From: Escherichia phage SDYTW1-F1-2-2_3
Reading direction: 5' to 3' (one strand)
Sequence record: OR296290.1
Length of the DNA stretch: 64,000 nt
The notes below the pieces were generated by a model, which did no database searches, was not told where the DNA came from, and worked only from the letters and a program-made list of their open reading frames with translations. Shown piece by piece: positions 29,113 to 40,329 of this stretch. Positions within the stretch are counted from its first letter, which is position 1, and each line of letters begins with the position of its first letter. The position numbers were made by a program, and so were the translations under genes.

Positions 29113-29487
29113 CTATGGATTTATACACTGACCGTTACCGGATTCCATTTCATTCATAGACTCATCAAAGAGCGTCAACGATGAGCGCATCAAGTGATCA
29201 ACCGTAATTTGTTTGCCAGTGGTTTCATTTACCAGTTGAATAGTTTTATCATATGATTGTACATGTTCGAAATCATTTACATGTAAAATAATAACCTTCG
29301 GTGACTTTTTACCAGTATCATAGTTTTCTACAATATAGGTGCACTGTAAACCGTCAACCGTAGCAGGGGAAAACGTTGCAGCCTTAACGCTACCCATAGC
29401 CGACAGCAGGACACCTAACAGGAGAACAACCAGAAAGAAGCCTACAAATACTTTCACTACGAATTTAATAATACCCATGATAATCAA
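29113..29487 (-). CDS. membrane/secreted protein (124 aa)
   Basis: N-terminal hydrophobic segment FVVKVFVGFFLVVLLLGVLLSAMG. Confidence 0.45.
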   Translation of the reverse strand: MIIMGIIKFVVKVFVGFFLVVLLLGVLLSAMGSVKAATFSPATVDGLQCTYIVENYDTGKKSPKVIILHVNDFEHVQSYDKTIQLVNETTGKQITVDHLMRSSLTLFDESMNEMESGNGQCINP

Positions 29488-29580
29488 CCTTTAGTTAGAG
29501 AACGTAAGAATAAAGCATATCAGCGACGAATAACGCCACTGTAACAACGAATAAGCACCGCCAAAAACAATCATGAATCA

Positions 29581-29847
29581 TTAGTTGCCTTTACCTTTAA
29601 ATAACGCTACTCTAAGCAGTTCGATCTCTTCCAGTGAAAGAAGAATCCGACGTTGCGCCAAATACTGACCAGCTAGAAGTGAATCCATGATGAGAGCAAC
29701 AGCGGGAAAACTCACCGTTTTAATATTATCGCCGACAATAAACAAGATTAAACACTTGTCAGAGTCATCCGTATATGAGAAATCGATCTCACCGTAATTG
29801 TGGGTTGGGATAGTAAAGCTGTATTCTTTATTCATTTTTGTCACCAC
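29581..29847 (-). CDS. hypothetical protein (88 aa)
   Basis: Track ORF in central island. Confidence 0.4.
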   Translation of the reverse strand: MVTKMNKEYSFTIPTHNYGEIDFSYTDDSDKCLILFIVGDNIKTVSFPAVALIMDSLLAGQYLAQRRILLSLEEIELLRVALFKGKGN

Positions 29848-30092
29848 TTAGGCAAATCACAATCAAGAAGACCAGCAAGCGACAAATCACCGTCAATGTA
29901 GATCGACTTGAAATCATCACGGGTAATTTCAAAATTAGCAAAGGCTAACCAATCCTTAAGAGGCTGAAATTCCATCCTGCAAAAAGTGATAACAGGCAAG
30001 ATTATCTGACCGTCAAGTGTATTAAACATGATAGAGCTTCCACCAACAAAACAAGAAAAACCGTTAGATAATTTAACTTCTTTAATAGCCAT
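29841..30092 (-). CDS. hypothetical protein (83 aa)
   Basis: Track ORF in central island. Confidence 0.4.
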   Translation of the reverse strand: MAIKEVKLSNGFSCFVGGSSIMFNTLDGQIILPVITFCRMEFQPLKDWLAFANFEITRDDFKSIYIDGDLSLAGLLDCDLPKW

Positions 30093-30118
30093 TTTTTACA
30101 CTCCCAAAAATAGATTAT

Positions 30119-30610
30119 TTACTTACTGGCCTTGATGCAGTTGGCTAGATTAACGTGAACTGTATAAACAGCATTATCAGTGTTATTGTAAACCGTGGTG
30201 GCAAGTATTGATTCATTCATCGGGCCATAACTGACCAGATTCGTGACAGCTTTCGCATGGCTGTAACGTTGTACAGTGCCATACGTCACCATATCCGCAT
30301 CATTATCAGTGCGCTTAAGTACCAGATCATTGTTAGGCTGATTGTCCAGTGTTTTGGTACTAACGACCAGACCATTACGAGAAACGTTACTAAATTTAAC
30401 TTTTAAAACTACTTGATTAGTGTCACTATCCGCACCATTGCAAATCATCCAACCCTTACTAACAGAATTAGCGAAGACACTAGCGGCATCAGTTGCAGGG
30501 GCAGGACTAGCAACAGCCTTATCAGAAAGAGATGTGACCAGTGCACTAACACCGATAGCTGCAACCAGTGCATAGCTTGCCAGATTTACTACCTGCATTA
30601 CCTTAGCCAT
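30119..30610 (-). CDS. secreted protein with signal peptide (163 aa)
   Basis: MAKVMQVVNLASYALVAAIGVSALVTSLS signal-like N-terminus. Confidence 0.5.
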   Translation of the reverse strand: MAKVMQVVNLASYALVAAIGVSALVTSLSDKAVASPAPATDAASVFANSVSKGWMICNGADSDTNQVVLKVKFSNVSRNGLVVSTKTLDNQPNNDLVLKRTDNDADMVTYGTVQRYSHAKAVTNLVSYGPMNESILATTVYNNTDNAVYTVHVNLANCIKASK

Positions 30611-30913
30611 TTGTTAACCCTCGTTAATATGTATTTAGTTTTTATGTTTCACAAGATAGCACATATTTCTACTTCATACGTAGGGTCATTGCTCAGTTGA
30701 CCACTTCACTGACTCGATAGTGTCCCAGCTTTCACCAGTCAATCGCAGAGTCCTTATCTTTAAACATTCTCCACTACTTAGGACGATTATCCTTCATGGA
30801 GCTTACTACCATCTAGCTACTTTGCATCACTGCTTCGCTTCGATGAATACAATTTACTACTTCTTAATAAAGAAAGCAAGTCCTACGGGTAAAATATTTC
30901 TACTATCTCTATA

Positions 30914-31327
30914 GGACGGGGAACATACAACCGCAGAACAGACCACGGGGAAACATAGCAAGATAGTGCGGTAATAATATACCACTTAAATAATTGTATA
31001 ACTCAAACATCAAAGACCATTCGCTACGCTCATGCACGCTGAAAAAGAAAGTAATAAAAGAAATAATAACATACATCAATCATTATCCACTTAATTAATA
31101 CATACATCATTATTGCACTCATAATCATCACTATTGAAACTATTTACATTCAAACTATGGGGAACGTGGGCTATTACTTATGGGTATTATATCGCCTTAA
31201 ACTATTGGTACAGTGAGGGACTAGCCTTTCTCTCACTCAGTAAAGGGGAACTAAATAAACGGGTAGGTAATGAATAGGATGGTATACACGGGGAAAGAAT
31301 AACGGGGAGTAGGCACGGGGAAAGGTT
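30914..31327 (+). repeat. cluster of six ACGGGGAA-core direct repeats
   Basis: Copies at 30914, 30943, 31158 (TGGGGAAC variant), 31289, 31302, 31315; CACGGGGAAAG exact at 31288 and 31314. Confidence 0.55.
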
Positions 31328-31517
31328 GGAACGTTGATAGGGATGTAAAGGCATTGCCAATAACCATTTTTTATTTGAGGACTCCCCCTTTTTAACAATT
31401 CGCCGCGGGGTGCCTAGCCCCACTCGGTCAAATCAGAATTTTAAACAGATATATACATCTTTATTTTTTATAAATCTGTATTTTAAACTCTTATATATAA
31501 GGTTAAGAGAGAACTTA

Positions 31518-31679
31518 ATGAATCTAATTAAAGTATTTAGACGGATGAAGTGTAAGCACAATTACTATCTTCTTCGTAAAGCTTACGGGGATGAAAGAAT
31601 ACATGGTCTCTACCTATCAACATGGAAGTGTAAGGAATGTGGTAAGTTGAGATTCAGTACATGGGTGGATAGGCCTTAA
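31518..31679 (+). CDS. small zinc-ribbon-like protein (53 aa)
   Basis: Track ORF trimmed to ATG 31518 (AGAGAGAA SD); CKHN...CKECG. Confidence 0.4.
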   Translation: MNLIKVFRRMKCKHNYYLLRKAYGDERIHGLYLSTWKCKECGKLRFSTWVDRP

Positions 31680-31687
31680 CGTGACAT

Positions 31688-31772
31688 GGCCTTTATGACA
31701 TGAGGGTGCCTTTATGAAGTCCCCTTTACATCAGAGATTATGGGTAGGCCTTTAGATGATAGTGCCTTTATG
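31688..31772 (+). repeat. three GTGCCTTTATG-type direct repeats
   Basis: Copies at 31688-31697, 31707-31716, 31763-31772, plus variant GGCCTTTAGATG at 31748. Confidence 0.45.
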
Positions 31773-31807
31773 GGTAAAACCCCTCCCTTTTCAGAGGAGA
31801 TATAAAA

Positions 31808-32080
31808 ATGATTCTAGACTTTTTATCAGAGTTGATTCCTTACTTCCGCACTGAAAAATGTGCATTTAAAGTTGAAGAAGTTGGGGGCACTGAAGTAATA
31901 ACTTGTTTGGGTAGATTAGTAGACCTAGACGATGATGAAGATTTTGATGTTACAATAGACCTGAGTTCATTGGGCTGGTTGTACATGAGATGCTTTGTAA
32001 CCTACAAGGCTGAGACTTATAAAGACTATCGTTATAGTGATAACACTGACACTGACACTGAAGGAGAGAATGATGAATAA
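31808..32080 (+). CDS. hypothetical acidic protein (90 aa)
   Basis: Track ORF; C-terminal DTDTDTEGENDE. Confidence 0.45.
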   Translation: MILDFLSELIPYFRTEKCAFKVEEVGGTEVITCLGRLVDLDDDEDFDVTIDLSSLGWLYMRCFVTYKAETYKDYRYSDNTDTDTEGENDE

Positions 32081-32729
32081 CAATATGACAGGAACTAATA
32101 CACTGAATGCAATCTATGAGAACATGGGATGTAAAGGCGAGGTTGTTTTCAATGGTGGTCCTCTCCGTCCTTTATCAGAGGACATTCTCTATCTGAACCG
32201 TGTTCATGAAACTACTGGAGGTAAGTCCCAAGTTGAGATGGTAAAACAACTGGCTCATGGTTCTGTGTATGGTTATGCTCCTCCAACCCGTGAAATATGG
32301 GAAGGTTTGATTCCTCGTACAGAAGCTAAAGATGTGAAAGACTATTTCACTGTAGCAAAGGAAGTTAAACGTAAGTGTCCTTCCAATCTAGAAGTTGTTC
32401 CGTATGTATCTACTAAACATGATCATCTCCCTGACTATGCTCGTGCAATGATTGAGATGATTGAAGAAGCTGAATATGAAATGCTCCATGATTACATTAC
32501 CTCCAAAGACGAATGGCATCGTGATGTTCGAATCGAAGAGGATGGTACGGAAACAATTACGTGGATTCACAAGAGTGAGTTAGTAGACGACGCACTGCGA
32601 GACTACGAAAAATTTTTGGTCGACGGCTCTATTCTTTTAGAGGAAGAGAAGGGTGTAGAACTTCCGTGGGAGGGTGAGATAGTTACTTTAGGTAAGATGT
32701 TTAACCTGTCCGTTGGTGATTGTAAGTAA
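32070..32729 (+). CDS. hypothetical protein (219 aa)
   Basis: Start moved to ATG 32070 after AAGGAGAG SD; terminator follows. Confidence 0.5.
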   Translation: MMNNNMTGTNTLNAIYENMGCKGEVVFNGGPLRPLSEDILYLNRVHETTGGKSQVEMVKQLAHGSVYGYAPPTREIWEGLIPRTEAKDVKDYFTVAKEVKRKCPSNLEVVPYVSTKHDHLPDYARAMIEMIEEAEYEMLHDYITSKDEWHRDVRIEEDGTETITWIHKSELVDDALRDYEKFLVDGSILLEEEKGVELPWEGEIVTLGKMFNLSVGDCK

Positions 32730-32734
32730 TGTTT

Positions 32735-32757
32735 GCCTCCCTTGGGAGGCTTTTTGT
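32735..32757 (+). terminator. intrinsic terminator
   Basis: GCCTCCCttGGGAGGC then TTTTTGT. Confidence 0.65.
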
Positions 32758-32785
32758 GTTGTTGATAATGTAGAAGGAGTATAAA

Positions 32786-33259
32786 ATGTTTGGAGAAAAC
32801 GGAGAACTCACACCTGCACAGGTAGCTGAGATTACAGGAAGATTACCCGGAGTAACGGAAGAACTTGAAGGCCGTGGTATGAACCCAAGCAATGGGAAGT
32901 TTCAAAAGGGAAATAAATTCGGACGACCCAGAGGTAGTAGAGGTAAACTGACACAATTAATGTTGGACCGTGTTGCTGCAAGTCATTTGTCTCCTGATGA
33001 AGTGTTAATTCAAATTTACGAAGATCCTAATATTCCACCTGATCTTAGATTCAAGGCTGCATCAAAAGTTGCAGATCTGGTATATCCTAAGGCGGCCTCT
33101 GTTGAAGTTAAGATTGAGGAAGAGAATGTAATTAACGAAGAATCATTGAATGCACAAATCAAGGACTTCTTGACTGGAGCACTTGGTATCGATGTTATGC
33201 CTCCAGAAGAAGACAACTCTGAGGACGCTGAAAAGGGGGAGGAAGCGGACGAGAGTTAA
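32786..33259 (+). CDS. putative terminase small subunit
   Basis: Immediately upstream of TerL; basic GNKFGRPRGSRG motif; acidic C-terminus. Confidence 0.45.
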   Translation: MFGENGELTPAQVAEITGRLPGVTEELEGRGMNPSNGKFQKGNKFGRPRGSRGKLTQLMLDRVAASHLSPDEVLIQIYEDPNIPPDLRFKAASKVADLVYPKAASVEVKIEEENVINEESLNAQIKDFLTGALGIDVMPPEEDNSEDAEKGEEADES

Positions 33260-33420: not shown

Positions 33421-34962
33421 ATGTCATTAGATAAACAAATTTATGAAGCTCTAACTGGTAACAATCTTAGTGTAGAGGAAAAGAAAGCACTATTGAATAT
33501 GTTGAAAGAGCGTGACCAATGGAGGAAGTATAATAGGATTTTGTCTTTCAAGGCGTATGACTTCCAAAAGAAATTTTATGCAGCAGGATTGAAGCATCGC
33601 TTTAGATTCTTGTGTGCAGCGAACCGTGTTGGTAAATCTTATAGCGAGGCATACGAGTTTGCTTGTCATGTCACAGGTCGCTACCCAACTTGGTGGACAG
33701 GATATAAATTTAAAAGACCTATCTTAGCATGGGCAGTTGGTATTACAGGGGATTCCACAAGGAAAGTATTGCAAAAGGAATTGTTTGGTACACCTATCGG
33801 AAAGGATACAAACTTATTAGGGACAGGTGTCATTCCTCGTGATGCTATCGTCATTGATACGATAGAACGAGATGGTAACAAACTTCAAATCGTACAAATC
33901 AAACATCAAAATGAGAGAGGAGAGTTTGACGGTTTAAGTACATTAGAATTCCGTTCAACCCAACAGGGTGAACACACATTGATGGGTGCAACAGTTGACT
34001 ACATTTGGTTAGACGAAGAAGACCCATACGAGTCTATGGCTATATTCGCACAGTGCGTCACACGTACACTCACAACTAAAGGTCTAGTTACAATTACAGC
34101 TACACCAGAGAACGGTTTAACTGAACTGGTAGATAAATTTATGAAAGGTGAAGGGGATGAGAACACAGGTTCTCTATATTTCCAGAATGCTTCTTGGTGG
34201 GATGCTCATGCAGACCTAGGTGGACACATCACTGACCAAGATATAAAAGATATGACTGAAGGTATTCCAGCGTGGCAGTTAGAGATGCGTTCAAAAGGTA
34301 TGCCATTGTTAGGAAGTGGTTTGATTTATGATGTATCGGATGACACAATTAAATGTGAACCATTCGAAATTCCTGATACGTGGAAACGTGTCTGTGCAAT
34401 TGATATTGGTATTGATCACCCAACTGCTGCTGTTTGGACAGCTTACGACGCAAACACGGATACTATCTATGTTTACGACTCATATAAAGAAGGTGGCTTT
34501 ACTCCAGTGTATCATGCTCCAGCTATTAATGGTCGTGGTCAGTGGATTCCTGTCATCCTACCGCATGATGCGGACAATACTGAGAAAGGTAGTGGCTCAT
34601 CTGTTGCTCAATTCTATAAGAATGCAGGAGTTAACGTACAGAGTGAGACCTTCTACAACAAAATTGGAATGGATGGTAAAAAGAACTTCTTTGTAGAACC
34701 GGGAATCACAGATATCCGAGAAAGAATGATGAGTGGACGCTTTAAAGTCTTTAACACAGCCGCTAACGCTAAGCTATTCGAAGAGAAAGCTAGATATCAC
34801 CGTAAGGTTGGTAAGATTATTAAAGAACATGATGACTTAATGGATGCAATGCGCTATTCAGCTTGCTCTGTTACACATCGTGGTCGCTCTAAGCATGATG
34901 TTAGCTACGGAAGCGCTTCTTTGTATGAGGCAAACGTAAGCAGATGGAATCAGAGCTACTAA
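33421..34962 (+). CDS. terminase large subunit
   Basis: Walker A-like CAANRVGKS, Walker B IWLDEED, C-terminal nuclease-like region; followed by terminator. Confidence 0.85.
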   Translation: MSLDKQIYEALTGNNLSVEEKKALLNMLKERDQWRKYNRILSFKAYDFQKKFYAAGLKHRFRFLCAANRVGKSYSEAYEFACHVTGRYPTWWTGYKFKRPILAWAVGITGDSTRKVLQKELFGTPIGKDTNLLGTGVIPRDAIVIDTIERDGNKLQIVQIKHQNERGEFDGLSTLEFRSTQQGEHTLMGATVDYIWLDEEDPYESMAIFAQCVTRTLTTKGLVTITATPENGLTELVDKFMKGEGDENTGSLYFQNASWWDAHADLGGHITDQDIKDMTEGIPAWQLEMRSKGMPLLGSGLIYDVSDDTIKCEPFEIPDTWKRVCAIDIGIDHPTAAVWTAYDANTDTIYVYDSYKEGGFTPVYHAPAINGRGQWIPVILPHDADNTEKGSGSSVAQFYKNAGVNVQSETFYNKIGMDGKKNFFVEPGITDIRERMMSGRFKVFNTAANAKLFEEKARYHRKVGKIIKEHDDLMDAMRYSACSVTHRGRSKHDVSYGSASLYEANVSRWNQSY

Positions 34963-40259: not shown

Positions 40260-40329
40260 CGTTTTAAGACCTATACAAGCTAGTGTGTAATGTATATTCT
40301 TTGTCTACATATAACAAGGAGGACAACCT

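Follow-up and report, generated by a model that had tools for sequence, protein, structure and literature searches.

The window analysed here is the whole 64,000-nucleotide stretch of DNA from Escherichia phage SDYTW1-F1-2-2_3 (OR296290.1). It contains a gene-free gap of 907 bp (30611-31517), in agreement with a preliminary description that had placed a gap of about 900 bp between a leftward gene island and the rightward late genes, and had noted in it a cluster of six short direct repeats. A candidate gene for the small terminase subunit and the gene for the large subunit (TerL) are encoded to the right of the gap, 1.4 to 2 kb downstream of the repeats in its right-hand part (Table 1). The term late genes is inexact, as the first gp36-type late promoter motif is found at 32766, before the small-terminase candidate, and in phage SU10 the genes between the direct terminal repeat (DTR) and the position equivalent to 32766 are considered early. 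This motif, TAATGTAGA (32766-32774), precedes the small-terminase candidate by 12 bp and is also present at 40288, 41790 and 57795, matching the positions of the SU10 late promoters. A tRNA scan of the window returned a single tRNA, far off at 21745.

The preliminary description had not recognized the gap as a physical genome terminus. The junction region is 80-93% identical to the corresponding region of phiEco32-like coliphages (Kuravirus, Gordonclarkvirinae), and window 31223-31415 aligns over its full length, with identical boundaries, to bases 1-193 of phiEco32, base 1 of that phage (agcctttctctcac..., agcctttc) aligning to 31223. The linear phiEco32 record begins 2,240 bp before the large terminase gene; its first 193 bases recur at the end of the record, that is, the repeat is present at both termini. 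Many GenBank records of relatives start exactly at the position homologous to 31223, and for phage Paul the DTR predicted by PhageTerm is 1-193. The reads of SU10 revealed sharp blunt ends and a 193-bp repeat (PMC4281155), and nanopore reads of YF01 gave the same terminal repeat ends, with DTRs of 192-193 bp in 30 phages of the group (PMC9965538). By homology, the window is a circularly permuted Kuravirus (phiEco32-like) assembly with one collapsed copy of the DTR. The 907-bp gap would then correspond to a concatemer junction, in which right-end unique DNA is followed by one copy of the DTR and then by left-end DNA, and the repeat is expected at both ends of the virion DNA of the present phage. 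In the record of phage PAS59 a terminal repeat_region of 275 bp is annotated at 1-275, off the phiEco32-type boundaries; it is probably an assembly overlap rather than a physical repeat.

Table 1. Sequence elements and terminase genes at the junction. Offsets are distances in nt from the left genome end; TerL, large terminase subunit.
Feature	Position	Strand	Remarks
ACGGGTAA, upstream cluster (right-end unique DNA), first copy	30885-30892	+	identity to window 0.97 in 13 class-A sequences
ACGGGGAA, upstream cluster	30916-30923	+	conservation 0.86
ACGGGGAA, upstream cluster, within invariant CAGACCACGGGGAAACAT	30945-30952	+	conservation 0.98
ATGGGGAA (TGGGGAAC variant at 31158)	31157-31164	+	about 60 bp left of the DTR
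CTAGCC, left DTR edge	31221-31226	+	predicted end between T31222 and A31223
DTR, 193 bp	31223-31415	.	homology to the phiEco32, SU10, Paul and YF01 repeats
AGGGGAAC, additional weak copy, offset 22	31244-31251	+	most class-A relatives only
ACGGGTAG, DTR copy 1, offset 37	31259-31266	+	most widely conserved copy
ACGGGGAA, DTR copy 2, offset 66	31288-31295	+	offset kept in classes A, B and C
ACGGGGAG, DTR copy 3, offset 80	31302-31309	+	classes A and B (offset 80-83); absent in class C
ACGGGGAA, DTR copy 4, offset 93	31315-31322	+	offset 93-95 kept in classes A, B and C
Most conserved DTR block, GTAAAGGCATTGCCAATAACC.TTTTTTA..TGAGGACTCCCCCTTTTTA	31346-31396	.	conservation 0.93
CTAGCC, right DTR edge	31414-31419	+	predicted end between T31415 and A31416
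Candidate small terminase subunit, 157 aa	32786-33259	+	directly upstream of TerL; profile matches
Large terminase subunit (TerL)	33421-34962	+	Pfam Terminase_6N and Terminase_6C

Both edges of the DTR carry the hexamer CTAGCC, which would be cut as CT|AGCC. On the + strand of the window the longer motif CTAGCC[CT][CT] occurs at three sites, two of them the DTR edges. Of about 20 relatives examined, nearly all retain an edge motif of the form CT(A/G)G(C/G)(C/T). We regard CTAGCC as a candidate terminase cut-site motif. The most conserved block of the DTR lies in its right-hand part, and distant metagenomic relatives still have its ACTCCCCC core. The block, which corresponds to the conserved DTR positions ~130-170 of one earlier study (PMC9965538) and to the CCCTTTTTTA repeat of SU10 (PMC4281155), is conserved far more widely than the repeats described below, and it could be the true terminase site, as an alternative or in addition to them.

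The repeats themselves are same-strand A[CT]GGG[GT]A elements, all with a GGG core, located at the concatemer junction. The six-copy cluster of the preliminary description was confirmed, and most of its coordinates, including 31158, 31302 and 31315, were correct, as was the statement that CACGGGGAAAG occurs exactly twice (31287 and 31314). Two copies placed at 30914 and 30943 are in fact at 30916 and 30945, 2 nt away, and further copies of A[CT]GGG[GT]A, at 30885, 31180, 31259, 31585, 31740 and 31770, had been missed. Four copies form an array inside the DTR, with spacings of 29, 14 and 13 bp. Outside the DTR, copies are found 280-340 bp to the left (the upstream cluster, in which the two ACGGGGAA copies are 29 bp apart) and 170-355 bp to the right, where the last two are separated by 30 bp. 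The copy at 31157 terminates an invariant block, CTATTGAAACTATTTACATTCAAACTATGGGG, and may be part of a different element. The two ATGGGTA copies at the far right are interleaved with GCCTTTA, four of whose five copies in the window are at 31689-31770; the stretch at 31666-31780, which separates gene 1 (31518-31679) from the following gene at 31808, carries a repeat family, (G)GCCTTTATG, and sequence similar to this family is present in phiEco32 at 415-470 and 625-680.

The DTR of the window and those of phiEco32, SU10, Paul and YF01 are homologous, 193 bp long and alike in their boundaries, with the ~130-170 block and the CCCTTTTTTA repeat in both. The DTR is already known, and the GGG-core array adds to the short repeats known at the junctions of DTR phages. 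The array at offsets 37-93 and its flavours are not described in the two studies of the group cited here (PMC9965538, PMC4281155); the original phiEco32 papers may mention these repeats.

The preliminary description had proposed that a random distribution of the motif would speak against a function. We found it to be clustered and confined to one strand within the 64-kb window. ACGGGGA occurs six times on the + strand and is absent from the - strand, and all six copies fall within 670 bp (30916-31585). For ACGGGGAA, four copies were found against 0.69 expected, a number reached in one of 100 shuffles. When all 7-mers and 8-mers of the window were ranked by their densest 450-bp cluster, ACGGGGA was the top-clustered 7-mer and ACGGGGAA the top-clustered 8-mer of the whole window; a 7-mer of any kind with five copies per 450 bp arose in one of 60 Markov-1 simulations. 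The degenerate motif A[CT]GGG[GT]A behaved in the same way, with 12 of its 20 + strand copies, and none of the 9 copies on the - strand of the window, in 30885-31770. The bare hexamer GGGGAA showed no window-wide enrichment (16 found, 20 expected), so that the signal resides in clustering and strand bias. In IME267, an independent complete genome, five of the eight ACGGGGA copies are at the junction, and the motif cluster is kept in 12 relatives. The repeats are real and conserved.

To assess conservation along the junction, 13 close relatives were aligned and their identity to the window was scored by segment. Identity was 0.97 at the motif positions of the DTR array and 0.91 in the spacers within it, and dropped to 0.51 in the 56 bp directly to the left of the DTR; two other parts of the DTR, a mid stretch (31324-31345) and the right tail (31397-31415), scored 0.69 and 0.68. 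Thus, the array is conserved, whereas the sequence adjoining the DTR on the left is not. The ORFs that overlap the DTR are not conserved, and since 1-bp indels occur among the aligned relatives, no coding constraint seems to act here.

In more distant lineages BLAST aligns only the last third of the DTR. Nevertheless, offsets 37, 66 and 93-95 persist in classes A, B and C, despite the BLAST-unalignable DNA between them. AAATA(A)ACGGGT was found at offset 37-39 in all lineages examined, and this copy persists even where the small-terminase candidate of a metagenomic relative is no more than 62-77% identical. Scans of IMG/VR returned known isolates and two metagenomic contigs only, one of the two being an unrelated chance match. 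Class C phages have a longer terminal repeat with unchanged left-end motif offsets. What differs between lineages is the flavour of the motif. The array is of the CGGGGA type in class A, of the CGGGG(N) type in KBNP1711 and Bas89, and of the TGGGTA(G) type in ECBP2, Bas86, PAS59 and EK010; at offset 66, the copy reads CGGGGA, CGGGGT or TGGGTA across classes A, B and C. The upstream cluster of the class C phages EK010 and Bas86 consists of two copies of ATGGGTAAG that are 30 bp apart, and that of Bas89 of ACGGGG-type copies. The flavour therefore shifts in parallel in the DTR array and in the cluster located 280-340 bp upstream.

Could the repeats have no sequence-specific role at all? They may have arisen by local tandem duplication and been kept by homogenization of the DTR, the flavours reflecting recombination of mosaic blocks. 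DTR copies 2 and 4 indeed lie in mutually similar 27-bp units (GTA..CACGGGGAAAG), the array spacers are nearly as conserved as the motifs (0.91 as compared to 0.97), and the array and the upstream cluster travel as one block in IME267. These observations, however, do not account for the persistence of offsets 37, 66 and 94 where the intervening sequence is BLAST-unalignable, or of copy 1 in relatives where identity in the small-terminase candidate has fallen to 62%. Moreover, every copy keeps one strand and the GGG core, and a cluster 300 bp away, outside the DTR, has the same flavour. An origin by duplication and recombination alone seems unlikely to us. The suggestion in the preliminary description that the repeats are a protein-binding array is plausible in view of their conservation, fixed positions and parallel change of flavour; its two specific readings, as regulator sites and as an origin, were not supported.

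According to the first of these readings, the repeats would be operators for a phage or host regulator, acting on the early promoter to the right of the DTR or on leftward early transcription. A sigma-70-like promoter has been proposed for gene 1 of SU10 just to the right of the DTR, and the homologous segment of the window (31423-31500) is duplicated; the arrays are upstream of the proposed promoter whether the genome is linear or concatemeric. Yet the repeats are not at a promoter: the one proposed for relatives lies 100 bp or more downstream, the array ending about 100 bp before it, and a scan for promoters and terminators was empty at the array. Rather than dyads, the sites form direct repeats with a spacing of 13-14 bp, and no gene for a DNA-binding regulator was found nearby. 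The distance of the sites is fixed relative to the genome end and not to the promoter, as the class C phages combine a longer repeat with the same left-end offsets. Transcription control is, in our view, a quite improbable function of the repeats. The duplicated promoter-like segment (31430-31497) comprises AAATCAGAATTTTAAACAGATATATA and, at a distance of 42 bp, AAATCTGTATTTTAAACTCTTATATA; in phiEco32 and in SU10 it is present once.

The second reading takes the copies as iteron-like sites beside the AT-rich segment 30960-31150, serving as an origin or in the replication or duplication of the genome ends. The upstream cluster and the DTR array are two direct-repeat clusters that bracket this segment of about 190 bp, and a DnaA-box-like sequence, TTATCCACT (8/9), is present at 31091 in an invariant block, with a related copy at 30979. 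In addition, phages of the T7 type must handle the terminal repeat specially when they replicate (PMC4281155). On the other hand, the AT-rich stretch is rich in indels among close relatives, and an origin has no need of four copies inside the DTR, each a fixed distance from the cut site. Pfam and PHROGs revealed no initiator or Rep-like gene in the neighbourhood, the genes there coding for small secreted, membrane or acidic proteins and for terminase. We consider a role in replication doubtful. This segment also holds a conserved pair, AATAATATACCACTTAAATAAT (30973-30994) and AATCATTATCCACTTAATTAAT (31078-31099), 105 bp apart, the second of which contains TTATCCACT. In the equivalent region, more distant relatives have four to five copies of ACACTTAA.

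The strand bias in G runs (14 runs of G3+ and two of C3+ in 30800-31500) raised the possibility that the repeats act as structured DNA or RNA, in the form of a G-quadruplex or hairpin in a single-stranded DTR, or of a small RNA. Also, ACGGGGAGT at 31302 is complementary to a conserved ACTCCCC at 31381. This complementarity is absent, however, in class C and in Bas89, and no canonical G-quadruplex was found with loops of up to 12 nt. Both strands of the DTR fold no better than shuffled sequences (z of +1.96 and +0.87), and the interval 29500-33000 gave no Rfam match at E values up to 1. The structural reading is largely refuted, and we rate it as highly improbable.

We then considered which protein might read the array. 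The small-terminase candidate, which lies directly upstream of TerL, is a possible reader. Its assignment is supported by a profile of 31 homologues, for which the best matches in the PDB were the small terminases 7JOQ (E value of 0.0026) and 6W7T (PaP3; E value of 0.052), and the same gene has been assigned as the small terminase before (PMC9965538). A single-sequence phmmer search with the candidate gave no matches, its AlphaFold model is of low confidence (pLDDT of 67), and a Foldseek comparison of the model with the PDB was uninformative. In a comparison of five phages, the small-terminase candidate and TerL appeared to track the motif class; the mosaic genes 1, 4 and 5 did not track it and were discarded as readers. 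Co-variation of the small-terminase candidate with the motif flavour was broken, however, by the pair formed by IME267, which has a CGGGGA array, and EK010, which has a TGGGTA array, as the candidates of these two phages are 98% identical.

A whole-genome comparison of ORFs showed that IME267 is EK010-like almost everywhere. Its main window-like block runs from the right-end genes through the upstream cluster into the DTR, of which it includes the left two thirds, and a few other small or tail-related segments are also closer to the window. IME267 is thus a mosaic, with a Suseptimavirus backbone and a Kuravirus or window-like right-end block (from about 73.5 kb to the end), and the recombination joint is inside the terminal repeat. 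The genes of the block code for small secreted, membrane or acidic proteins, with no evident DNA binder among them. Since a single recombination block of IME267 holds the right-end genes together with the upstream cluster and the array, the parallel change of flavour can be explained in part by physical linkage. A reader must accept both the CGGGGA and the TGGGTA flavours. Either a host factor does the reading, or both flavours are tolerated by virtue of the core that they have in common, A[CT]GGG[GT]A; the latter fits the mixture of ACGGGTAG and ACGGGGAA within class A itself.

Together, these results suggest to us that the GGG-core repeats are more likely to be cis-acting signals for DNA packaging or end formation than any of the alternatives, including an array for a gene regulator; we give the proposal an even chance. 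The packaging or end-forming machinery, that is, terminase and possibly a host factor, would assemble at the copies on replicated concatemers, and the copies would assist in duplicating the DTR as well as in positioning the cuts at both of its CT|AGCC edges. A packaging role is favoured by the fixed distances from the left end, the hexamer common to the cut sites, the nearby terminase genes and the orientation of all copies on one strand; the repeated elements adjoin the predicted terminase cut, 37-93 nt from the left CT|AGCC. Two findings call for caution. No co-variation is seen between the small-terminase candidate and the motif, and the block at 31346-31396, which is conserved much more widely, could be the terminase site.

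Repeated binding sites for small terminases are found in other phages, as the R sites of lambda cosB, the hexamers of P1 pac and the pacL and pacR sites of SPP1. Such repeats have been summarized in part (PMC7672466). The present junction resembles these systems in having repeated short elements by the cut site and, nearby, a PaP3-like small-terminase candidate. Unlike the situation in lambda and phage 21, the small-terminase candidate does not co-vary here with the flavour of the motif, and in contrast to cohesive-end or headful systems, the genome ends appear to be blunt-ended direct repeats.

T7 offers the closest analogy. Inspection of the T7 ends revealed three copies of CCTAAAG in the 160-bp repeat, about 12 just to the right of it, with a 13-bp spacing, and several to the left of the right-hand repeat. 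To our knowledge, the role of these arrays has not been established. Like T7, the window has short direct repeats in the same orientation both inside the DTR and flanking it (30885-30952; 31259-31322; 31585, 31740 and 31770), with a similar spacing (13-14 bp in the array), and in both cases a genome with a DTR is packaged from concatemers. However, A[CT]GGG[GT]A is unrelated to CCTAAAG, so that the two arrays are analogous and not homologous, and T7 has many more flanking copies. The T7 model has been invoked for phages of the present group (PMC9965538, PMC4281155), but T7 packaging involves the phage's own RNA polymerase, and the phiEco32-like phages do not have one (PMC4281155).

It also seems conceivable, if improbable, that the copies serve as a positional ruler. 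The factor binding the copies, at steps of about 29 bp (offsets 37, 66 and 94) from CT|AGCC, would not be the helix-turn-helix arm of the small-terminase candidate but perhaps TerL itself or a host protein. The flavours (CGGGGA, CGGGGN and TGGGTA), which the array shares with the flanking clusters, would sort co-infecting Kuravirus-like phages into packaging groups that are incompatible in part. How concatemers are recognized and cut is poorly known for phages with short DTRs other than T7. The group has no T7-type RNA polymerase, and the authors of the SU10 study explicitly call the mechanism unknown (PMC4281155). Repeats at fixed offsets, the CT|AGCC edges and the invariant block provide a testable map of candidate packaging signals in a phage group that is widely isolated for therapy. 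The same elements are of use in annotation, as they allow the true genome ends to be located in permuted assemblies and flag inherited mis-annotations near the junction.

Three inherited names in the neighbourhood of the junction look wrong. The 124-aa "terminase" encoded at 29113-29487 (-) begins with a hydrophobic or signal segment and shows no similarity to terminases, the 83-aa "polymerase" at 29841-30092 (-) is a small acidic protein, and the "ABC transporter" at 32037-32729 (+) has no Pfam match. Lastly, the k-mers TTAAAGAG and TAAAGAGC of the separate array near 28 kb (about 28387) are found three times where distant metagenomic relatives have the corresponding non-coding DNA, indicating that this array is conserved too.
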